Positions 6,630-63,700 of a stretch of DNA of 64,000 nt are shown here, in pieces. The DNA comes from Eukaryota sp. GEM-RC1. Lineage: Eukaryota. The first letter of the stretch is position 1. Each line of letters begins with the position of its first letter. The stretch covers positions 372,001 to 436,000 of the forward strand of contig JAUFOQ010000018.1 of assembly GCA_040285855.1 (NCBI GenBank), read 5' to 3'. The notes under the pieces are model-generated. The model was not told the DNA's origin. It saw only the letters and a list, made by a program, of their open reading frames with translations, and searched no databases. Position numbers and translations under genes: made by a program.

Positions 6630-7080
6630 TTCAATTATCAAAGATATATTTATCGATTCATGTTGCAATATTCGATAAATAAATATATTTATCGAAGTTG
6701 CCTAACAAAAGATAAATAAAAGATATCGATAATACACACTCCTGCTCACCATTCGTCTAGTTCAACAATTAACCAAAATAATCAACCTAAATAAACCTAT
6801 TTGACGCTGATCGAACTTAGTATGGTAGATCGTGTGTTGGGTACAGTGAATGTACTGGTCAATGGTTCTAATGATGACTTTACTCACATGTTGAACCAAT
6901 AGTTTCACCAGAGAAGTTCTTAGAGTTGTTGCAGTTCTTACTACAAGAACTGCAACAATTACTATGCTATTTGTTGTTGGAGTAAATCACATTATCCTTC
7001 TTCTAACTTGTCTTTTCTCCCACAGTTCTAAACAGGGATCCTCGTGAATATTTATTCTATTTATTTCTATTTACAGTATA

Positions 7081-7146
7081 CAGTCTACCCTCTAGAGGGT
7101 ATCTAATATGAAGGTGTCGGACCAGTCTTATTGGGAGGGTAGACTG
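7081..7146. mobile_element. 66-bp Tc1/mariner-type MITE
   Basis: 12-bp TIR CAGTCTACCCTC / GAGGGTAGACTG flanked on both sides by TA. Confidence 0.7.
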
Positions 7147-7459
7147 TATATATTTTTGAAACATTTTTACGATCATGCAAATAAAACGAAATATAAATAA
7201 ATATAATTAACTTATTTAAAATAAGATCTCTTTCATTTATCTATACACTTGAGGTCTGGAATTCTCAAACTAAATGCAAAAAGCTCTTTCGCCTTTGAGT
7301 TAAGGATGGCCTTATTTATTCAGCCACCTAATACATCAGCTCAAATCTCAGATTTTATGTTCTCTGTTGTCATTAGACAGTTGCCATCAGTTGTTTTTTG
7401 TTTTCTCAATTGCAATTTCTGTCTACAAAACATTGTAAAGAAAAATTAGCATAGTTTGA

Positions 7460-30412: not shown

Positions 30413-31120
30413 TCAAACTGTATTTTTACTTAAACCGCGCTTTGAAAACATCTTCTTAACATCAAATCTTAACCTAAAAGCAACAGCACAAGGAATTAAA
30501 GCAGTTGGCCCTAGAAATAGACCAAGAGAGGCAGCAACGGGATTAAAGAGATAACGGAATCCCTCAATAGAAGCAAATACATCACGAGTTGATATAGATT
30601 GGTTTTGCTCAAGAGAACAAGCTTGTGCGAGAGGTTGAAGAACACGGTCTATATAGATCGACGATGGTTTGGAGATGAAAAGAACACCACACAAAAGACC
30701 CCATTTGAGAGACAGGTTAGTCATGAACCTAGACCAGCTTAAAGATACTGTGAATTTCTTTTCGGGTGCTTAACACCATTTTCGCTCCAGACTCCTAAAA
30801 CGTTGTTCACTGTCATTCTTTCTCCTCCTGTGTCATCTGTTTCGATCTTGTTATGCCTTACGGTAACCTTCCTCAACCTCCTAGTGCAATTGCTGTCATG
30901 GAAAACTCGATTGGTTTGATTTGAATTCTTTGAGGTATCATACTTCTTTATATACACTTGTTCGTAGATTTCGCTATACGGTTGCTGTGATTTCCTATCA
31001 CAAAAATAGACACTTCGACTCTCTGACCAGTTTCAGAAAGGTATCCGCCTCTTCTGATTCAATGTCAGCCAGATCCATAGACATAACAACTTCCTCAACA
31101 GGCACTTGGCTACTCTGAGC
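30413..31120 (-). pseudogene. Interrupted ORF chain of unknown function
   Basis: Coding-like segments (PVEEVVMSMDLAD.., 30739..30957, 30413..30724) separated by stops and shifts. Confidence 0.35.
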
Positions 31121-31962
31121 TGAACTCATCACACATATCCTTCGTTCAGGTAGAAACGGTATGAACTCTTTTGGTTAACGAAAAGGATGTTACATATAGT
31201 TGTTTGGATTGAGGGATTCTCTTCAATTTGTCTTATTTTTTGTAGTTGTTGAAAAACTGTCAGAACGTGTGAACATGAATACCCATTCTTTAAGGGATTA
31301 AGATGAACATGATAGGATCTATACATAATAAGAAGTTTTTCAAAAATACAGTGTATTAAAACGTTGTAATATTCGATCGAAAAAATACATAATGAGCTCA
31401 TTATTAATAACACTCTAGACAAATTGATTAACATAGAATCAAAGCGAACATTTACTATACACAACGCTGTCAACTTGATGATTGAGCAAAGAACGAATTC
31501 TTAAGTTGAATCTTATGAGATTCAATCCAAAGGGACTTCTTCGTCTGGATGGATTAGTTGTTGAAGGAGAAGCGAAGTTTGGATAGAATGTCTTCTCATT
31601 AGTAAGTGATTTCCTCATTGGAGAGCCCTAGGCAAAGACTTGAACATCACAAGGGGAAGCAGAGCTAAAGAAACTGTAAGGGAGATCCTAAGAAACAAGA
31701 AGTGGGATGACTAGCAGGAAGTGGTGGGTGTATGGAAGGAATCTAGAAGGGAAGTTGGCAATAGGATACCGAGAGCAAGTGATGTAGGACTAAGAGAGTA
31801 AGAGAGTCAGAGCATTGCAGATACATAGGATAAGAGGACCTAGGACTAGCAAATGACCGTGTAAGACAAGGCTTCAAATTATAAAGGTGTGACTATAACA
31901 GGGGTGGGAAACTCAATATGATGAAAGGAAAGTGATTATGGTTGACCGGAAACTTCGACACC

Positions 31963-33899
31963 ATGGCACAGCCACGTAAGTGTTTCACTCGGTCGTGTGC
32001 TCTGAACTCGCTGCTTATACCTTCAGCAGTTCACCAGATTTCCTCATGTCACCGAAGTCTGCCATGAAGCTTCTTTGCTTCTTCATTCTTTCCTTGTCAC
32101 TTTCCCTATAGCGGCCAGAGCTATTGCGGAACAGGATGTCTGGTATCTCTTTATGACCGTCATCAACAAAAGTAACTTTCCTGCTCCTCAAACTTCGAAA
32201 GGACAAAGGCTTTTGTTGAATGTTTTCTATGATGGTTTTCTTCCAGAGTCCCCTGCTTCTTTTGTTCCTCCTTTTACTTTGGAACACCAAAACTTTTTAA
32301 TTTCTGAGTGGAATTCTGATATACTCACTTATGGGTTACTCCTTCAGAATTTCTTGAACTCCTGGCTAGCCACACAGACCTTTTCTGTGGTGAATAGCCC
32401 TAATCTTTCGCAGTGGTTTACTTGCCGTTCTCGTCAGTTGGCAGCTAATGTTAAGTCTTCTCTGCCCAAAATATCCAGAGCTTGGATTAAAAATTTTCTA
32501 TATGCCCATTGTCGGGTCATTGAGACACCTCGTCAATTTTCTTCGCATCTTCTTTATCTCTTTTATAATCTTCCAGTTAATGCTCCTTCTTTTGTTAATG
32601 TTTCCATTGACAATCAGTCTGAAAAAATCTTTTTACTTAACGCTGTCTACTATATTTTCCATCTTTTCGATCGTTTTCCTGTCTCGGAAGGACTTTTATC
32701 TTCTGCTGACCACATGAATGTTTCTCCTAAAGAAATTCGTGAATTGTTTATTTTTAACCTATCAATTGCACAATTCTTAGAAACAAATTTAACTAATTTT
32801 TCCCATTGTTGGAGACGGCTCCGACTGATCCCCCTAGCTTCTCACAAAGGGTCAAAAATGTTGGATGTACCTCCAAACATCTTCAGAAGCAATGGAAGAT
32901 TCCCTCCAGCTATAGGTACTAAGGCTAATCGATTTTTTATTTTGAACCAGAATTTGAAGAAAATTTTCAAAAATTGTCCACATGAAAAATTCAAAATGTG
33001 GAAGAAAAGTTATAAAAGAAACTACAGAAAGTTAGCTCTCAAATCAAATGGAAATGAGCTTTTGATCACATTTGAACGGACTGAGCCAACCTTGGAGAAA
33101 GAAGGAGAGCCGCCAAAAAAGAAAAAAGAGGCGGACAAAACTTGAGATGCAGCAAGATCCTAAAGCCAACTGCATCAAATCCATCAATTTAAAAGGATCA
33201 AAGAAGAAGCCTCGCCGTCGCCCTCCAACTTCCCAGGAGATTATCCCTGAAGGCCCATTAGTGGGTGTGGATCTTGGTCAGTCACGTCTTTGTGGCTACT
33301 ATTTGAATGAAGAAAACCACGGACTGATCAAGTGTCCTACAGGCCGCCAGTTTCGAACAAACCCTTCTCCTCTCAAAATGTCACCGAACCAATATTCCGT
33401 GCAAAATATTCACCTATATTTGAATCACTGGAATTTAGTAAGAAAACAGGTGTATAAAGAGAGTAACCGGTCGAAGTGGAAGTCGATTAAGTTCGACAAT
33501 CGAAGACGCAGAGAACGACGTTTTCGTGAAGCTCTGAATACTTTTCAAGAGATTTCTGGTCATCCAGAGGAACTGTATCTGGCTGTTGGCTCAGCAAACT
33601 TTCCTTCCCATTTCAGGAAAGTTAAAAGATATGGATCAGCTCGATGCTTTCGGAAATGGCTGAATCACCAAAAAGGAGTAAAGCACTTTCCCACCAGTGA
33701 ATTCAACACTAGCAAACTGTCAAGCTGCTGTATGTCACTAAACGAAGCAACCAGATGGTGGCAAATGAGAGTCTGTGCCAACTGCCATCAAGTATATGAC
33801 AGAGATGTTTCCGCTGCTAAAAATATTCAGACTAGGAAGAAAGCAGAGTTGTGGCCTGGAAGATATGTCTGTCCTGAGGTAATGTCGAGGAGAGTCTAA
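31963..33899 (+). CDS. Fanzor1 (TnpB-family RNA-guided endonuclease), ~640 aa, two frameshifts
   Basis: ATG 31963 MAQPRKCFTRSCALNSLL; shift ~32040 into HVTEVCHEASLLL..LIPLAS..KSNGNELLITF; shift ~33120 into GVDLG (D 33270), LAVGSA, SEFNTSKLSSCC (E 33699), CANC and DRDVSAAKNI (D 33804). Confidence 0.9.
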
Positions 33900-34200
33900 T
33901 GGAGAGATAGGTAGAAATGATAAACAAAACCACTTTGAGACCGATCTGGGGAAGTATCTATCCCGGTAGATATGTTTGTCAGATCCATTTAGATAGATTA
34001 AGTCTAAGAAACTTTGTTCTGTGTAAGCAGTGTAAGCTGTGTAAGCAGTCGGTCTATCTAAGTGATGTAGCCCGTTGATGAAGATCATGATTGTCTTTGT
34101 CAGATGACGCTATATGTCTCTTACAACCTGTGAAAACAGGAGTGAATTTCATAATTGGGAGTAAGCAGTTGTTATGAAATTCACAGTAGACAAAAGATCA
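33900..34200 (+). ncRNA. Candidate Fanzor omegaRNA scaffold region
   Basis: Four stem-loops directly 3' of the Fanzor ORF: 33954-33973, 33986-33999/34051-34064, 34127-34140 (GAAA loop) and 34142-34184. Boundaries are unknown. Confidence 0.55.
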
Positions 34201-34883
34201 ACATTCTTCTACCTTCCACTTATTCAAACCAAGACATCCGGCTATATCATACACTATACCCTTGTGGTCTTAGCTGGATTCTTCATCACATCGGATCTTC
34301 ATGATTGCCGAGGTTAACATAACAAATGCTTGCTTTCTTCTCTTAGCTGGATCTTTCGCTTTTCGGAAACAAAAACCAATGGTTTATACAATGACTTAGC
34401 TGATCTTTTCAGCCACTTCTTCAGTTTCCAAGACACACTTGTCTCCTTCTAAGTTTGCTGATTCTTTTTTCAAGAAAGTTTTCTTTTAAGTATTTTATTC
34501 TTTTAAAATAAGTCTCATTTTGTGATCTCCAGTGGGCTTGAACTAATTTAAACCATCTTTTAAACTGATCTTTCAATCAACCTAACACTTATACTAGAGG
34601 TGCTTTATTTACAGATGTTTTAAATTTTTTAAACAACTGAAACATCTATGATCTACAACACTTCTGTTTATTCTTCTTCCCATATATAATTTTTAAGTAT
34701 TTCAATTTTAGATCATTAACATAAGATTTCAAGTGTCAGATTGCTTATTTGTGTTATTAAATTTCAAATAAAGACAAAGATCTCATACATATAAATATAG
34801 ACTTGAAGTGACTAGTTGATTTTATTTCTTAAACACACATATTTGAAACCTTTAAAAGACCTCAATTATTGGAAAACATTTGG

Positions 34884-35522
34884 TCACAGATCACAAACAG
34901 TAGATGGCATCTCAACTTGTACAAAATTCGGATCGCGAAGATGAAGATTAAACAAGTAAACACCAAGCACAAGAATAACTAGCAAGCAGCAGATAGCAGC
35001 AAGGAGCAGAAGAATACTATGAACAACGAACATTGATGCGAGGAGAAGAACCAAGCAGTACAACAGATCTATTATCACAGCAAACAAGGCGTTATAAGAC
35101 AGTGGACAAAACTCGTAAGCGGAATGGAACACAACGAACAACAGCCACGCAGATATAGGAATGAGAGGCCATAGAAACGTGGAATCAGTCTGAGAGTAGA
35201 TGAAGAAGAGCAGGGAACTGATCCAGAAAAAGAGAGAGACATGTACACCGAGAACAATGCGGTGGGAGGGAAGATAACAGAAACAGAAGTGCGAGGACAG
35301 AAAAGCCAGCCAGCAAATGGTGGGATATATAAACCACAATGTATGGAAAGACGTTAGTAAGTTTATGACAAACAGAAGTGTGGTAATAGCCAGAAAAACG
35401 AAGAGATGTGTACGGAAGAGTTTCCATGGAGATGGGGGCTCTGATAGAGGTTCAAGGGAGGGAGATCGCAAGTAAGTTGCTGATTCATTTTTGGAGACGG
35501 AATCGAGCGAAAAAGTATACAT
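34884..35522 (-). CDS. Multi-pass membrane protein with two 2TM-like domains
   Basis: Repeated F..HL..F....LLF.IN......LW..YP...W.....H pattern. Confidence 0.7.
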   Translation of the reverse strand: MYTFSLDSVSKNESATYLRSPSLEPLSEPPSPWKLFRTHLFVFLAITTLLFVINLLTSFHTLWFIYPTICWLAFLSSHFCFCYLPSHRIVLGVHVSLFFWISSLLFFIYSQTDSTFLWPLIPISAWLLFVVFHSAYEFCPLSYNALFAVIIDLLYCLVLLLASMFVVHSILLLLAAICCLLVILVLGVYLFNLHLRDPNFVQVEMPSTVCDL

Positions 35523-35589
35523 CAGTGGTAAGTACAGTTAGATGAAGTTTGGTTGTTGGCGTGTGAATGTTTAAAAATGTCACCTTGAC

Positions 35590-36225
35590 CGTTTTATTTC
35601 TTTTAGAAGTAATGATCGTGATTCTGTAAGGGATCAATTATATTGTATGTGTAAATCTTATGGAATAGTTTCCTTTTTAGAACGGTTCTGGCTGGATTTT
35701 TTGATGATAACAAATCGTTTGAAAATAGCCGTGGTGACGTCATATTTCCTGGTCTCGATGGTTATTTCATTATTGCTGATGTTATGTCTATCGACGTTTG
35801 TAATGGTTCCAACAAGAAACTTGCTAAATCTAATACTAAGAACCCTCTGTTGATTGGTGAAAAATTTTAAAGAAGAAAAATATTGTGCTAAATTGAAATT
35901 ATTGAATTCGGCTTCGCACTCGAATTACTTGTTGTACCCTTTTGTAAATTCACTTTACGGTTCTTTAGGTGAATCTGCAACATCACTACTTGAAATCTTT
36001 GTGAAGATTGTAAAGAAAACACATCTAAGACTTTTGATCTTAGATACTGGAAAAATAGAATTGTGTTTGCTATCTTTAAATGTATGGTGACTTCTGTATC
36101 TAGCGCTTTATCTCTTGGCAGACATTATGAGGATAAGGTAGGTGAGAATTTCCAAATAGGCAATCTGGACTTTGAGGATATTGATTTTTAGATGTATGTA
36201 CACTGTAGTGTTGTTGTCAATAAAA
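35590..36225 (+). mobile_element. CRE-type non-LTR 3' fragment (second family)
   Basis: Near-identical to 55390-55448 + 56093-56636; endonuclease remnant RGDV..ADVMSID..K.EKY; ends GTTGTCAATAAA. Confidence 0.85.
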
Positions 36226-43900: not shown

Positions 43901-46900
43901 TTATGATTCCGGCTGTTCAATCAAATTAGATGACGATGACAGAACCAATCGTTTACTGAACCTCCTTAGCGAGTTCTCAGCTATCTTCGATTCCGTTCCC
44001 CACAAAGATGGCATCGATTGTCCACCGATTACAATTGACTTCCACGATGAAGAGTCCACGGTGAAACGAAAACTTCGGGGGCCTAATCCAGTCAAACAAA
44101 GGATAGCTGAAGAAACTTTTCATGAACTAGTACGTTTGGGATACGCTGAGTATACTTCACCCCACGGAAAATTCAGCTCCCCGGTAGTACTTGTAGTCTA
44201 CCCCGATCATCGTAAGCCTAGACTTACTGGTGACTTCAGTGGTACTGGAGAAGTCAATGAACTTACTAATGTTGTCGAACCGAATCTACCGAGAATCGCA
44301 GACATACAAGAATTTCTGAGTGAAGCTAATTACATAGCCACTCTCGACCTGCCAAAAGCATTTTGGCAACTGAATCTGCGGATCACGAACGTGACAAGAC
44401 AACTCTAGTCATCCATGGCCTAGCCATTCGATTTAAACGAGCTTGTTTTGGCCTAAAGAACGTACCTGCAATCCTTCAAAACTTGATGATGGATATATTC
44501 GACCACGAAGGTATATTCATTTACATCGACGACATCATCATAGTCGCTAAGACTTTCGATGAATACTTATGTAGAATAAAATTCGTTCTTGAGAGAGCTC
44601 AACTTTATAGAGTCAACCTTGGCTTACACAAGTGCAAGTTCATAATAAAGAATCGTCCTATAACTATCTTAGGTTGCGAATACATCGACAACAGGCGTCG
44701 AATCGATTCAAAACGTGTAGAAGCTCTGGTAAACATACGAACACCGACCACCATCAAAGAAGTTCGAAGTTTCGTCGGTTCTATCAACTACATTAAAAGA
44801 CATTAAACTACATCAAAGATTTAATAGCAGATGCATCTGACTTACTAGCTCCCATTATAGCCCTAGTAAAGAACAAAGCACGAACAGTTCACTGGACACC
44901 TCAACTCCAATCAAATTTTGATGAGATCAAAAGAGGATAACCAATCACATACCCCTATGTCTACCAGACAAAGACAGAGGCATACTGATTAGCGTAGACG
45001 CCAGCGATATCGCCGTAGGTGGTGTCGTCTGGTTGGAATGCACTCCTCATTCACCTGAGGGAACTCCACTGAACGAACGCAAAGTAGAACCACTAGCATT
45101 CTACAGCAAACTACTCACTGACTCTCAACAGAACTGGGCCACGATCCAAAAGGAATTGTACGCCATTCTCCTGATTCTAACCGAATCCCAACTGTCGTCA
45201 TACCTTATCAGCAAGGAATTAACGATCTTCACATATCATAAGAACCTCGCTTACTTAATCTCAGCACCCGAAAAGAATAGGATGGTCAAAAGATGGATCC
45301 CTATCCTCAGCGAATACCTATTCACAACAGTCCACACCAGTGGCGAAGACAACCATTGGGCTGACATGATGTCACGCAATGTTATCAAAGACGCACCAAC
45401 TGAGTCTATAAACAACATAGTCACATATTGCCCAGAGCATTTGTTCTCTATAACCGATAGCCGATGTCCTATTGATGAGGATACGGAATATCAAACTTTA
45501 TCAACAGAGTCAATCAACATGATTGACGATGCTCTGATCAACAAATCGAAGTTATTCGACGCCTGGCTTTCGAACGTACGCTATACACAAGTAGAAACCA
45601 TCAAAAATAACGATCCATTGTTCCATCACCCGTCGACTTGGTTCAATGAAGAGTTCCAGCTACACATGAATAGCAACAACAAGATCTTGATACCAAGTGC
45701 CTTGGTGAAAACCACCTTTAACCACTTACACGGTTTTCCACATGCAGGTCATCCTAGCATTAAAGATACATTGATCGGCTAAAATTTAGTGACTACTTCT
45801 GACCCAGCATGATCAACGACATGAAAACTCACTGCAGGCAATGTCCAGCTTGTCAAAAGATAGCTCCCCTTGCCAAAACAACTATCAAATCTTCAGGTAA
45901 TTTATGGTCCGACAAACCATTTGCAAAGATGAACGTCGACACTATAGGAGCACTTCCCACTGACACATCGGGAAACATTTACTTACTAGTGTTCATAGAT
46001 TCCTTCACCAGATTCACAATCCTATGTCCACTAAAGGAACTGAATGCTCATGAGACAGCATTTTCGTTAGTGTGTAACGTTTCCGCCACCTTCGGCATTC
46101 CAGATCTCATTCATAGTGATAATGGCAAAGAATTTGCTAATCACGTTTTCAATGACGTCTGCAATCAATTTGACATCACAGCTAATAAATCTGTACCTAG
46201 TTTCTCTCCTAGCAACGGGTTAGTTGAACGTCGACACAGAGACATCCGACAAGCTTTACGAAAGATGCTCATAGACTTCAATGACTATGACAACTGGAGT
46301 AAATACATCCCACTAGTATAACTGCTGGTAGACACTACGAAGAGTAGAGTTACCGGCTTTACACCGTACGAACTGATGTTTGGTTCTAACACCAACCCTG
46401 GTAGTGATCCAAGTAAAATCATCTCGTGTCTCACTCAGAACAAGATTTCAGAAGATTCCTTTCTAGCTGATTACCAATCAAAATTAACAAGAATTTTGAA
46501 AAAACGGGAAGAAGCAGAAACCACCCAATCATCTATCAAACCTTCCATTACTACAGTTGATACACCCTCGCTATTTGCTATCGGGGACTTAGTACTACGA
46601 AGTAACAAAGCAGCCAAGAAGCTTCATGGCAAACAAGAGGGACCGTACCTCGTCATCGATATCCCTTCCAAAAGCTCACTTGAACTGCGGAACTTTGTCA
46701 CCGGACATCGCTTCTGCTCCAGCATTCATCTATGTACCAAGTACCTTTCCGACAAACGCTCCTCCGACGAGTTCCACAAAGCAGTAGCATCTTGTGACTC
46801 TGAAGAAATGGTCATCATCCAGATCCTTGATCAACGTGAATCACCTACAGGTCCCATATGTTCCGTCGTATGGTTTGACGGCGATACTACTGAGGAACCC

Positions 46901-47175: not shown

Positions 47176-47830
47176 GAATGGCTGAATGGAAAAACTATAT
47201 AGTGTTGCATTTCTATTTCTCTCGATTAATTGAGAAATTGTACCAGTTTGATGTGAAGGTTAATGTTGAAAAACGTAATCTTGTATCGGGTGGTGATGAA
47301 GTCGTTTGGATTTAATCTTAGTGGTTTTTGTTTGTTTTTACAATTTCATTGTTTCGTAGGAAGGTTACCTTATTGGCTACCGACTAAAGGTTTATAGACT
47401 GTATTTAACTTATCAATTTGGCATAACCGTTTCATTTTTTTCTTTATCTGTTACATGCTTAAGTTTTTTAAATCAATTACCACAGTGTATCCAAATACTT
47501 TATTCGGTACCCAGTTGAATACGAATTATGCTTTTTTGCTGTTTCCAATTTACGGACGTTTAGGAAAATGTACATGGAATTTTTTAAACGATTTCGGCAA
47601 AATCGTAAAAAAATAGGATGTACAAACGTTTTGATCATTTGTTATGGGTGAATCGGATCGTTTTTACTGTGTTTAAAACAATTCCCCTAATCATCTCCAA
47701 ATCTTTATTAGCAGTGAGTTCCTTTTATGAGGACAGAGCTGTTGTAAGATTTGCTAGCGACGGGTGTTGTTTTAATGATATCAAATTTTAGTTCTAGTAT
47801 TTGTGTTTATTTTAGTGTTTTTGTTCTATA
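47176..47830 (+). mobile_element. Two adjacent CRE-type 3' fragments
   Basis: 47176-47390 matches the 60720-60950 family. 47400-47830 encodes a related C-terminus and shares its tail with ~60385-60540. Confidence 0.7.
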
Positions 47831-48192
47831 AAAGATTTTGTCCAATTTTAGTTTCAAAGCTTTTATTATGATATGTATTTTTGTACACTTCATCGATATA
47901 CCTTTCTTTCCATTAAATCAACAGCCTTCACTATCAAACCTTAAAACGGCTTTGGACTCACAAATGGAACTCACAGCTACTAAAGCCTTGGAGATGATTA
48001 GTGTAGTTGTTCTAAAAGAACCAAATTCTGTAAGTTCATTTTTGTAACAATCTGGAACAGTCTATATAACTATCATTAATTGAATCACATTTGATTCAAA
48101 TGATTTGAATCACACTTCAATCATCAATCAAATTCTTCTTCTACTCCTTCTACTGTTCTAGTTCAAAATTCATTTTTTCTTCTTGTGTTATC

Positions 48193-53309: not shown

Positions 53310-55292
53310 CAGGGGTCGGGAAAAAATATTTCTATTGCAATATTTAAATATTTTTCATGAAAAATATTTATTTTTTGTACACGTAGATAAAAAATATTTA
53401 TTTTAATCTTTTGCAATACTGTATTTATTGCAATTATTATTTTTTGGAGTAAAAATAAATGATTTGTTGAGATGAAGAAAATGATACATAACAGAAGATG
53501 TGAAGTTCATTTTAACTATTCTGTTCTTGCTATGTCTCTCAAGCCTAAGGATACGGCCAAATTCTACTTTCGGAAGGTTACTCCAACCCCAAACAACTGC
53601 CCTGAACACAAAGAAGCTTGGCAATGTCGTCTTTGTCCCAACATGATCCCCCCTGTATATTCAGCCAAGAACTGGATACACGTACACAAATGCCACCCAA
53701 ACTTCAACGAAGAAATGATCGCCGCCAAAAACAACGCAACCATCAGTCGATTCTTAACACCTGTTTTGCCAGACAAGCCGCACAACATTTTCCGATGGCT
53801 GGAATGGTGTATTGAGAATCAAATGGCATTTACATTTGTTCAAGATCCAATGATTCAAAAAAACTGCAATCTTGACCCAATTGATGTTAAGACATTGGTG
53901 AAGTACATGAGACTCTTGTACACCGAAGTTTGTGCTAAGGTAGCCCAGTTGTTGCCTGAGGAATTTGGACTGATGTTTGACGGATGGAAGCACCCAACAG
54001 GAACCACAGAGTTCGTTGGGATGTTTGCGTGTTTTCCGCAGAAGAGTAGACCAGTTTTACTATCTCTGTTTCCGTTCGAACTGGACGAGGTTTATGACGA
54101 GAGCAGTCCATTTAAATCATCCAACGTTGTATTTGGTGCCGAACAATACAAAGAAAGAATCGCTATTGTGTTGTCAGCGTATGACAAAACTGTAGATGAC
54201 TTACTGTTTCTCGTTGGAGACAGCTGTGCTACCAACACTCGTCTTGCAGACATACTGTGTATACCTTTGATTGGTTGTGCTTCGCATAGATTTGCAAATG
54301 AAGTCAAGAAATTTTCTGGTGATTTAGATCCCATTTTGAAAGACATTGATGATCTTTTCACTCAATTGAGACATATCAAAAACACTCTCGTTCTGAAAAC
54401 CAACACTTCCTTGAGACCTTTGAGGCGGAATTCTACAAGATGGTGGTCTACCATTGCTATGTTGAAGAGATTTTTTCAATACATTGATAGAAAGTCCTTT
54501 GATCTCTTTGACGAAAGTGTCACTCAATTTGTCCCTTCTTTTTCTGAACAGCAACGTTTGAAAACATTGATGAAACAATATGAAACTTTTCATGTGCTCA
54601 CGCTTTATCTTCAGCGGGAAAGCATTCCTTTACACCAAATTCACGCTTCACTGGAACTTTTTCATCAAAGATTTCCCACCATGAATCAATACACAAGCTA
54701 TCCTAGCAGTAAACAACACAGCCCTGTGTTTGAATCTGCTATCATCAAAATACTAAATGGTCATGAAGACAGACTCTCAACAGCTGAACAAACCAGTGTT
54801 GCGTCCTTTCTTAAAGAGGATGTGGAAGAAACCGATATTGAAGAAGAGGATGGCGACAATGACGAAAATGAAGAGTCAGATGTTACCAATTTCGAAGGTG
54901 CACTTGATTCGAATGGCCAACCCGACAAGCCAACCAGTAAGTACATTGATTTGAAGTGGATTCCAGGTACTTCTAATGTATTAGAACGATTGTTTAGTAG
55001 GGCTAAGCATACATTAGGAGATTACCGATGTTCTCTGTCAGATAGCAGTTTAGAACAGCAATTGTATCTGTTGTACAACAGAGATCTTTGGAACGAAGAC
55101 GATGTAAGAAAAATTATTTCTAAAAGACCCTAAAAGAGGAAAATTTTGATACTGTTATATATAAAATATTTAAATATTTATTGCAATTTTCTACTTATTG
55201 CAATATTTATTTTTTGAGTATATTTTGAAAAAATATTTATTGGGCAATAAAAAAATACATTATTTTATTTAAATATTTTTTCCCGACCCCTG
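53310..55292 (+). mobile_element. Autonomous hAT transposon
   Basis: Perfect 22-bp TIR CAGGGGTCGGGAAAAAATATTT; 8-bp TSD GTTTACGG (53302-53309, 55293-55300); ATATTTATT subterminal repeats. Confidence 0.97.
53472..55133 (+). CDS. hAT transposase, intact
   Basis: BED-like CRLC..H...H, FDGW (D), VGDSC (D), CASH (CxxH), TRWWST and LERLFS (E). Start is 53472 or 53532. Confidence 0.95.
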   Translation: MKKMIHNRRCEVHFNYSVLAMSLKPKDTAKFYFRKVTPTPNNCPEHKEAWQCRLCPNMIPPVYSAKNWIHVHKCHPNFNEEMIAAKNNATISRFLTPVLPDKPHNIFRWLEWCIENQMAFTFVQDPMIQKNCNLDPIDVKTLVKYMRLLYTEVCAKVAQLLPEEFGLMFDGWKHPTGTTEFVGMFACFPQKSRPVLLSLFPFELDEVYDESSPFKSSNVVFGAEQYKERIAIVLSAYDKTVDDLLFLVGDSCATNTRLADILCIPLIGCASHRFANEVKKFSGDLDPILKDIDDLFTQLRHIKNTLVLKTNTSLRPLRRNSTRWWSTIAMLKRFFQYIDRKSFDLFDESVTQFVPSFSEQQRLKTLMKQYETFHVLTLYLQRESIPLHQIHASLELFHQRFPTMNQYTSYPSSKQHSPVFESAIIKILNGHEDRLSTAEQTSVASFLKEDVEETDIEEEDGDNDENEESDVTNFEGALDSNGQPDKPTSKYIDLKWIPGTSNVLERLFSRAKHTLGDYRCSLSDSSLEQQLYLLYNRDLWNEDDVRKIISKRP

Positions 55293-60719: not shown

Positions 60720-63700
60720 GTTTATTCGGCACCCAATAAGGTAACCTTTCTACAAACTATGAAATTGTAAAAACAAACAAATAATACTAAGATTAAATCC
60801 AAACGACTTCATCACCACCCGGTAAAAGATTACGTTTATCTACATGAACCTTCACACCAAACTTGTACAATTTCTCAATTAATCTAGAGAAATAGAAAGG
60901 CATATTCCGATATATGGAAAACACTATACGGTTTTTCCATTCAGCCATTCTAAACTTACGCTTCTTTTCTTTACACAATTCTTCGAAATCCTTGAAAAAT
61001 TGATCACCTGCAGGACTAATAGATCCAAAAAGAGAAACAGCAAAAGGTTGAAACCCAAATTTGGAATATGAGTTTCTATTTAATTCTTCTACTTGAGAGT
61101 CATACTTGGTGTGTTTGAGCTTTTCAGCTGCTGTTAATGGATTAAAAGAAGAATCTAATATCCTACTAACACAAGATTTGTTACATACATCTACTGTAGT
61201 AAAATCCATTAATGCTTGACTCGATTTAAGCCACGGAGTATGTAGATCCCCTCGTTTTTGATCAGTAAATTCATTTTCTGAAAGATGATTCAAAACTGGT
61301 TCAACTTTAGAGTGAAAACCATGTGCTTTAAACATGGAATAACAAGAATCACGTACACCATCATGAATTACTGCACGGAGATGAATAAAATAACGACAAT
61401 TAATTAAATGACGAAAAACACCATTAGCTCCACAAGAGCACGTTGAATAGTTTAATAAATTTGCAGGCCAAATAGCCAAACGAAGACGCATATTGATCAT
61501 CCAAGCTTCATCAGATAGATGTAATCCATACACCTTTGGAATTTGAGAAATAAATCCAGAAGGTCCACTATTACAAAGATCGATTAAAAAAGCAGCGAAC
61601 TCGGGACTATTAGTTTTAGCCAAGCTAATACGATTATTAAAGTCCAAGAGTTCAAACTCCTTGTCAATTTATTTTGCAGCTTACATACAGCAGATGGTAG
61701 AGATGAAATATTTTTAAAGGAGTCTCCTTCAAATGAGCAGGGAACAAAGATTCCCACATTTCAGGAGACAAAGATGATAACAAATCTTTAGCAGATTGAA
61801 TCCAACGGCAATTACTGGAATTCAACAGATTGATTCCATCCAAGGGAAACCGTTTCAAAAATTCAAACATAAAATTCTTAACACCTCCTAAAAGAGCAGA
61901 TTTTCTAATGATTTTTGCATGGGTGAAACCTACTCCTGCGAATTCAGAAGAATAAAAAGCATGAAATGGAATCTTAGACTCATCAATTTCAGCCAAGTTA
62001 GAGAGAAAATTTGTTCTAATAGAATTAAATTTCTTGGCAAATGTTTCAGTAAGGGAATAGTCTAATCAACGTAAAAAATGATTAATTTTCCCGGAAAAAC
62101 AGACCTGAAGCATAGCAAAGGAAACATGTTTGCTCACATCTAAAGATAATATTTGATTTAGTTTTTCTTCAATTGTAGTTAATGAACTCTCCAATTCTGA
62201 ATGAATTTTCTCATAATTTCCCAAAAACGTGCCAAGGAAACGAAAACATTGAGTAGAATAATCGATGATAGGAATATTACAAAAACCAAGATTAGAAACA
62301 TTCGAAGACTTAACAACAAGAAAACACTTATCAAAATTGATTGTTAAACCAATACTCAAAGAAAGTTCGATGAAACGTGAAAAACACTTTTTGAGAACGT
62401 CAACTGGAGCGATCAGCGAAGAATCATCAGCATAAGCACAAATTTTAACAGTTGGAAATTCTAATTGTAAGATTTTAAATAATTTTTGCAGAGCGAGACA
62501 AAACAAAAAAGGACCCAAAGGATCACCTTGCTTAACCCCTCTAGTTGATTTAATATCAAACTTGTCATAAATTAAATTCGACGCTTTACCATAAAAAAAT
62601 ATTAAAATAGGGAATCAACTGAGGAAAAAATTTAGAAAGTTCGTCAGATATAGTTGATCTTAAAACACAATTAAATGCATTTTTAAAATCAATGTTCAAA
62701 ATGGCATTTTCCTCATTTGAATGAAAAAGAAAATCAGAGGTTAAAGCAGCACACGTAGTACCATCAGGAACTCCAACTGCAAATTGAAACGGTCTAAAGA
62801 ATTCAACAGAGGAATCTCTGACTCTCCTAAAGCACAAAGTTGAAAAAATACGAGAAATTGTTTCACCCACTGCAATTGGTCTCACACCTCCATTTGGTTT
62901 GCTTAAAGCCACTAATCTAGAAGAGCAAAGAGCATGAGGTAATTTCTTTGTGCCTAATAAAACTTCATTAAAGAAAACAGCAAGATCTTCACAAATTTCA
63001 GGAACAGCATCAACGGCAATTTTAAAATGATCAAAACTCATTCCAGAAGGACCAGCAGCACGACCAGAAGGGGATGACGAAATTAATTGTAAAATTTCAT
63101 CAACTAAAACCGGTTTGTTAGTCCAGTACGACATGGAAAGTTCACCAAAAACCGGATTGCCTGAAAATTCTTCAACAGGGTGTAATTTTTTCAGTTTTTC
63201 AACAGTTTCAACAGAAACTTCAGCTGGAAGTGTGTGATTAAGGGAGGACAAAGCAGAAGAAAACTGACCTCGTAAAACAAGATTTTGAAATCTTTTAGCA
63301 ATAAACTTATCACTAACTTGAGACTTAAGAACAGGTTTAATTTTTCTATTGGACTTCTTAACAATTGACAACATATATCGCCAAAAGGTGCGGGATTCCA
63401 AATTCCACCACGTAAAATTTGTGTCACACTTCTAAGAGCAGTCCCGACATTAACGGCCGCCATTGGAGATATCATGATAGGAATTCTAAATTGTGGACGA
63501 CATACATCAATAGGTGAACAATCAAAACACACAAGAAGTGGACGATTGGATTTATTTTTCCCAGAAACAGATTTAGCACAAAAAAGACAGGTCAATGAAA
63601 TTGATGAATTAATTTTAGGCTCACAAACAGTCTCTTGGAAATCAAGAACAGACTGTTTAGACTCAACAGACAAAACAACTTCGGCAATCTTGGCATCATC

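Follow-up and report, generated by a model that had tools for sequence, protein, structure and literature searches.

What is the strongly folded stretch that directly follows the Fanzor gene of Eukaryota sp. GEM-RC1? The locus lies within 64,000 nucleotides of contig JAUFOQ010000018.1 (the window; all positions refer to it). An earlier note, made from the letters, had described four stems downstream of the gene and had proposed that they form an omegaRNA scaffold, transcribed in the sense of the gene and followed by a guide. Our analysis indicates that 33900-34188 is probably the folded right end of a 3.44-kb Fanzor1 element, and that it likely encodes an omegaRNA scaffold.

As the note had assumed, the upstream gene encodes a Fanzor: PF07282 was found in its C-terminal ORF, the layout is that of Fanzor1, and SpuFz1 is the closest solved relative. 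A ten-sequence profile search of the PDB returned SpuFz1 as the best of 22 matches (E 1.2e-23, aligned over WED-RuvC-TNB), the same profile matching ApmFz2 (3e-12), GtFz1 (5e-12) and TnpB (3e-6). Single-sequence PDB searches matched only the zinc-finger region. Two AlphaFold models were made, the first unusable (pLDDT 31) and the second partly usable (pLDDT 53); the fold search with the latter put GtFz1 and SpuFz1 on top with weak scores (E 1.4e-3 to 1e-2, none at E <= 0.001). In the part of Yoon et al. 2023 (PMC10711439) drawn on here, an alternative-E layout, a G or P at the canonical E and a near-exclusive DPG are given as Fanzor hallmarks. The RuvC residues of the intact relative P0023 are D440, G546, E583 and D618, and their codons are intact in the window copy (D at 33270, G for the canonical E at 33588, the alternative E at 33699 and D at 33804). 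This is the D-E-D arrangement of a Fanzor1, in which the alternative E shortly precedes the zinc finger; at RuvC-I the protein carries DLG instead of DPG. The WED motif, SNG/TNG, is of the TDG type, its counterparts in the alignments being SDG/TDG in relatives and TDG in SpuFz1, and intact relatives measure 646-651 aa, in the range of a Fanzor1 (~600 aa or more, with a large helical REC). The window copy has no intact ORF, and intact relatives exist: tblastn of P0023 matched the gene in three frames (residues 1-28, 31-396 at 96.7% and 377-648 at 95.6%), the frame being shifted twice, near 32040 by a net loss of 11 nt and in an A-rich run near 33115-33130 by a net gain of 1 nt; the note mentions neither break. 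As the first break is a loss of 11 nt, it is probably not a homopolymer error. By its sequence, the nuclease is a Fanzor1, closer to the solved Fz1 than to Fz2 or TnpB.

The ends of the element were sought on both sides of the gene. An inverted repeat that the note had missed, 30746-30758 and 34176-34188, is perfect over 13 bp including a TA at both outer ends, and its ungapped extension is identical at 33 of 53 positions. Perfect inverted matches of 13 bp are common by themselves, occurring in 36 of 280 null segments, but the combination of repeat, TA and 33/53 extension was matched by 0 of 276 null segments. These ends, known from a single copy, define a TA-flanked element of 3.44 kb (30748-34186) with terminal inverted repeats (TIRs) and flanking TA of the Tc1/mariner type (Table 1). 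A transposase was not found in the 5' region by six-frame translation or by tblastn with 81 proteins (best E 0.02), and a 122-aa ORF of that region has no Pfam match. The element resembles Fanzor1-only Tc1/mariner derivatives such as PUl-4, which, in the part of Bao and Jurka 2013 (PMC3627910) used here, have a TA target-site duplication (TSD), TIRs and Fanzor1 as their sole gene. Unlike for the PUl-4 group, the 64-kb window yielded no mariner transposase that shares these TIRs, so that the assignment of the element to a superfamily is tentative. By eye, ORFs run on through the empty site on either strand, but as Pfam returned nothing for the one in the left flank, they are not counted as support for the ends. 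No other DNA copies were found in JGI metagenomes or IMG/VR with protein-derived or DNA patterns, part of these searches being weak negatives that used a poor lysine-rich pattern. Four candidate relatives of an antisense ORF across the folded region were considered and none scored; this ORF thus gave no indirect view of conservation. Overall, the element is likely a non-autonomous TA-site Fanzor1 transposon with an omegaRNA.

Table 1. Features of the Fanzor1 element and of its predicted RNA (window positions)
Feature	Position	Strand	Remarks
Left flank GATA	30744..30747	+	TA = likely target-site duplication; GATA = predicted TAM, from a single copy and by analogy to Spu-1
Left TIR	30748..30798	+	11 bp perfect; 31/51 identical ungapped
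5' region, 1.16 kb	30799..31962	.	No recognisable gene in six-frame translation
Fanzor1 gene	31963..33899	+	~648 codons in intact relatives; two frameshifts here
Upstream RNA domain (predicted)	33902..34122	+	Closing helix around three long hairpins, zero-nucleotide linkers
Closing helix, 7 bp	33902-33908/34116-34122	+	Encloses hairpins A, B and C; begins three bases past the stop codon
Hairpin A	33943..33985	+	Apical part = first stem of the earlier note; pair probability 0.84-0.99
Hairpin B	33986..34064	+	14-bp stem; inner stem built from three 9-mers; GUAA (GNRA-type) tetraloop 34032-34035
Hairpin C	34065..34115	+	Predicted fold; overlooked in the earlier note
GAAA-tetraloop hairpin, 5 bp	34127..34140	+	Candidate SL1 of a minimal core; pair probability 0.99
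Terminal 14-bp hairpin	34142..34184	+	3' arm = right TIR, paired with an internal anti-TIR
Right TIR	34136..34186	-	Perfect part 34176-34186
Right TA	34187..34188	+	Likely target-site duplication; predicted last two scaffold bases (the SpuFz1 75-nt scaffold likewise ends in TA)
Predicted guide, ~15 nt from host flank	34189..34203	+	Inferred from 14-15-nt extensions given in the parts of PMC10432273 and PMC10711439 used

The four stems read from the letters are all present. The first pairs 33954-33960 with 33967-33973 (six Watson-Crick pairs and one G-U), the second 33986-33999 with 34051-34064 (11 and three) and the fourth 34142-34155 with 34171-34184 (13 and one), and the third is the GNRA hairpin CCTGT-GAAA-ACAGG. 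The tandem 9-mers reported inside the second stem amount to 3.2 copies (34021-34049), and the motif recurs in the loop of the fourth as GTAAGCAG at 34161. The three occurrences of GTAAGCAG in the window (34023, 34041 and 34161) all fall within the folded region; window-wide the count itself is weak, with at least three copies in 9 of 100 shuffles. The predicted structure exceeds these four stems, as the first is extended and hairpin C and a closing helix are added, and 17 of its 97 pairs are G-U. Widening the context to 411 or 601 nt leaves the hairpins in place. The closing helix is less stable: its pairing probability is 0.92-0.95 with 289 or 411 nt and 0.0 with 601 nt. A seeming repeat of the last codons of the gene within hairpin A was rejected as not significant (52 of 1000 shuffles). 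An Rfam scan of 31000-36000 gave no credible family (four matches, all at E >= 1.5, none in the folded region), and a sigma-70/terminator scan, whose models are not meaningful for a eukaryote, found nothing.

Folding of both strands against shuffles, a check that the note had itself proposed, gave for 33900-34200 -90.2 kcal/mol on the plus strand (z -5.16, reached by 0 of 100 shuffles) and -68.9 kcal/mol on the minus strand (z -3.88, also 0 of 100). After composition regression, 33900-34189 on the plus strand ranks third among the 1274 strand-segments of 290 nt in the window (seventh of 1278 with 200-nt segments), its minus strand ranks 42nd of 1274, and the first two ranks are taken by both strands of one strand-symmetric site at 47700. 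The plus strand of 33900-34189 is thereby the top strand-asymmetric segment of the window. The site at 47700-47989 folds strongly on both strands (z -6.2/-6.1), as does 6900-7189 (z -3.9/-3.6), and both are possible miniature inverted-repeat elements. Their existence lends something to the idea that the hairpins, too, belong to a miniature element, one unrelated to the Fanzor gene that landed downstream of it. We consider this very improbable: the right end of the block matches the left end upstream of the gene, which places the Fanzor gene inside the same element, a search of the 64-kb window turned up neither the block nor the TIR 13-mer a second time, and, unlike 33900-34189, the other folded segments are strand-symmetric.

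The note had further called the structure strand-polarised, every non-Watson-Crick pair of its stems being G-U on the plus strand. The polarity stands for 33900-34124 and fails for the last two hairpins. The energy gap between the strands was matched by 1 of 150 strand-paired shuffles for 33900-34124 and by 67 of 300 for 34124-34188; the latter, the 3' core, folds about equally on both strands (z -6.1 vs -5.6). Each of the upstream hairpins is stronger on the plus strand, with z-scores of -2.9 against -1.0 for hairpin A, -3.9 against -2.1 for B and -3.9 against -1.0 for C, and gaps as large were reached by 6, 8 and 2 of 300 paired shuffles, respectively. The gap of the whole region is partly compositional. 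A strand-neutral count of the bases flanking all 13 Watson-Crick runs of at least 6 bp gave seven plus-strand G-U pairs vs three A-C among 26 flanks, which is not significant; for the four mutually compatible longest runs, a hand-picked set, it gave six and none of eight flanks (binomial p ~0.001). As polarity is confined to 33900-34124, the claim of a plus-strand RNA holds best for the upstream domain.

The strand-neutral 3' core also bears on a reading at the DNA level, according to which the hairpins belong to the DNA of a transposon end, as subterminal palindromes, repeated sites for the transposase or local duplications, and no guide RNA is made. The fourth stem, a TIR with an inverted copy and without strand bias, is what a transposon-end palindrome would look like, the tandem 9-mers show local duplication, and the gene of the window copy is dead. 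Yet the left end has no such palindromes: over 290 nt it is not folded (ranks 1260-1271 of 1274), and only its last 65 nt reach z -2.2. In addition, the upstream stems need G-U pairs and work on the plus strand only, and two GNRA-type loops are present. We therefore hold this reading to be improbable.

An omegaRNA is favoured by the context of the fold. As expected for such an RNA, the region is structured, lies on the sense strand and occupies the space between the 3' end of the Fanzor1 gene and the transposon right end: the structure starts at most 3 nt past the stop codon (33899) and ends with the element (TIR to 34186, TA 34187-34188). The context thus supports the interpretation proposed in the note, and the region is a candidate omegaRNA. 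The predicted scaffold would include the TIR and the TSD, with the last stem directly before the guide. With its 3' arm, the fourth stem takes in the right terminal repeat. Under the published rule that a Fanzor1 scaffold includes TIR and TSD (PMC10711439), the first guide base would be 34189; the note, which had placed the junction shortly after ~34184, was right within 4 nt of this prediction. No other site in the window lies within one mismatch of the predicted guide. Beyond the element, on its right side, 34266-34411 contains three short CTTAGCTG(G)AT-type repeats with spacings of 73 and 53 nt.

The same design has been described for SpuFz1, from the Spu-1 and ghost Spu-1 loci of Spizellomyces punctatus (Saito et al. 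2023, PMC10432273; PDB 8GKH). In the sections of that paper used here, the Spu-1 RNA of 88-90 nt spans the 3' inverted repeat and takes in 14-15 nt of the flank; the inverted repeat is preceded by CA, and the TAM, CATA, matches the left flank. Like Spu-1 as described there, the present element carries only a Fanzor1 between inverted repeats, forms its last stem from the inverted repeat, has a TA-ending left flank and is predicted to take its guide from the flank. Differences from SpuFz1 and its locus as given in these sections are a stop-to-end distance of 289 nt vs ~75-80 nt, three extra long hairpins, different TIRs, DLG at RuvC-I and a frameshifted gene, the present system being known from sequence alone. 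The Fanzor1 reRNA of SfAV, in the part of Yoon et al. (PMC10711439) consulted, is likewise encoded by a non-autonomous TIR/TSD element with Fanzor1 as its only gene. Its scaffold includes the TIR and TSD and has a ~15-nt extension, as is predicted here, and in neither case is a pseudoknot needed. SfAV is an insect virus and its RNA has three stems, vs a free-living protist and five hairpins with a closing helix here.

How much of the region belongs to the mature RNA is a separate question. In one reading, which we rate a little short of an even chance, the omegaRNA comprises only the last ~65 nt (34124-34188) and the guide, ~80 nt in all, and the upstream hairpins are 3'-UTR structure of the Fanzor mRNA, with a role in processing, stability or localisation, and are trimmed off. 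This agrees with the Spu and Pp omegaRNAs, of 71-89 nt and two stems, with the independent folding of the core (z about -5.5 to -6.1) and with the instability of the closing helix in long context. Against it, the strand bias sits upstream and the three hairpins abut exactly, which suggests selection on the upstream RNA; longer Fanzor1 omegaRNAs exist; and the candidate SL1 has 5 bp vs 7 bp in three structures. Three parts of the predicted fold are candidates for the 7-bp first stem-loop to which RuvC/TNB binds: the GAAA hairpin (5 bp), the apex of hairpin A (7-8 bp) and the closing helix (7 bp). An alternative 7-bp pairing, 34128-34134 with 34180-34186, was discarded (probability 0.0), and the heptamer GTAAGCA, common to the folded region and the PpFz1 omegaRNA, was treated as a coincidence.

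In the other reading, which we regard as unlikely though a serious candidate, the mature RNA is the whole ~300 nt, a four-way junction of three abutting hairpins 5' of a two-stem core, serving a DLG-variant Fanzor1 family that has expanded to tens of copies in metamonad protists. At ~304 nt with its guide it would be longer than every Fanzor1 omegaRNA in the 11 Fz1 rows of Saito's table, where lengths derived from coordinates or sequences range from 71 to 229 nt, the longer ones including those of Batrachochytrium salamandrivorans Fz1 (229 nt) and GtFz1 (153 nt) (PMC10432273, in the part used); it would also exceed the ApmFz2 omegaRNA, given as 247 nt in the part of PMC11832414 used. As described in these sources, the three long RNAs share with the present one a multi-hairpin scaffold with long peripheral stems, which are largely dispensable or disordered, although ApmFz2 is an IS607 Fanzor2 whose RNA has a pseudoknot. 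If the full-length RNA is used, the upstream domain would be a recently built module, derived partly from local tandem duplication, and could serve in processing, in retention in the nucleus or in binding a partner. Of the two candidates for the mature species, the ~80-nt RNA is slightly ahead of the ~300-nt one. The strand bias and the exact abutting of the upstream hairpins suggest selection for the domain as RNA under either reading.

By analogy with the systems above, a working model can be outlined. A sense transcript would run through the right TIR and the TA into the flank and would be trimmed to the scaffold plus ~15 nt. The protein would bind a core made up of the last two hairpins, with the three long ones upstream forming a peripheral domain, either of the mature RNA or of the precursor. 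Loaded with this RNA, Fanzor1 would recognise a TA-ending TAM, predicted to be GATA or NATA, and then a match to the guide, as present at the insertion site when it is empty. Where a transposase supplied in trans has excised the element, repair of the Fanzor1 cut, templated by the chromatid or homologue that still carries a copy, would bring the element back by gene conversion. In the part of PMC13565253 used here, such restorative homing is shown for bacterial TnpB/IscB and inferred for Fanzors, for which it is not listed. As the gene in the window is broken, its RNA could work only in trans, with Fanzor supplied by intact sister copies, which would make this a kind of ghost locus.

Judged from its protein matches, the nuclease belongs to a family present in many copies; where members carry an organism name, this points to skoliomonad-type protists. 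The closest cluster holds 11 proteins of Eukaryota sp. GEM-RC1 (all examined), 96-97% identical to the window copy, two of which are full-length (646 and 648 aa) with D-E-D. A sister cluster of 82 proteins comes from TZLM1-RC (40 examined, 15 listed), and further relatives are labelled Eukaryota sp. TZLM3-RCL. Identity between the subfamilies is 58%, and KAL0243225.1 is one of the intact members. Among the matches listed, DLG occurs in all 12 GEM-RC1/TZLM1-RC proteins longer than 350 aa and DPG in all five TZLM3-RCL relatives, with DPN and DGG in more distant ones; from the DPG of the TZLM3-RCL relatives, its loss looks derived. GEM-RC and TZLM3-RCL are described as skoliomonad metamonads from soda lakes in the part of the preprint used (10.1101/2023.05.03.539051). 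A full-text literature search found no paper on Fanzor together with metamonads or Skoliomonas, and six metamonad names are absent from the supplements of two Fanzor surveys (less two PDFs of the first; the Yoon et al. supplements lay outside this search).

Two gene models join this family to other domains. P0004, of GEM-RC1, links a Fanzor fragment of the family to a leucine-rich-repeat gene model and probably reflects an insertion into a host gene or beside it. In KAL0209630.1 (1323 aa), of TZLM3-RCL, an XPG/FEN1/Exo1-type nuclease (PF00752 and PF00867) at residues 99-322 is joined to a complete Fanzor1 of the window copy's family at residues 581-1309, in which D-E-D is intact. Within its cluster (P0062, P0060, P0057 and P0058), P0060 and P0057 contain XPG domains as well, and a GDVEPNPG motif, which we take to resemble a 2A ribosome-skipping peptide, precedes the nuclease in three of the five cluster members checked. 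A literature search on this point listed three unrelated papers. As far as gene models go, homing by recombination would be well served by a Fanzor that brings along a 5'-3' resecting nuclease, and the fusion may be more novel than the omegaRNA candidate itself.

The window also holds a second Fanzor1 of a different family (18080-15830, minus strand), heavily degenerate with many stops and shifts (profile E down to 1.7e-8). Its 3' end lies only tens of bases from a SNARE/syntaxin-like ORF (15786-15106), leaving no room for a similar RNA behind it. Directly upstream on the same strand, an ORF (19003-18206) carries a DNA polymerase B exonuclease domain (PF03104, E 2e-12), making this a second exonuclease-Fanzor neighbourhood. 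Other remnants of mobile elements are an RT-RNase H domain (45033-45782, plus strand) and weak matches to a reverse transcriptase domain (62586-63401, minus strand) and a hAT dimerisation domain (53472-55133, plus strand).

The Fanzor1-omegaRNA architecture is already published, and no new principle is added here. What is new is the lineage, within the literature and supplements searched, the DLG variant and possibly the size of the RNA. The locus adds a recently expanded Fanzor1 family from a lineage absent from the Fanzor literature searched, and its defined right end, predicted guide start and predicted new TAM (GATA/NATA) make it a candidate for testing as a compact editor. If real, the ~300-nt RNA shows how far a Fanzor1 scaffold can grow. 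The tens of near-identical copies in chromosome-scale assemblies make these protists a good system for asking whether Fanzors home into empty sites.
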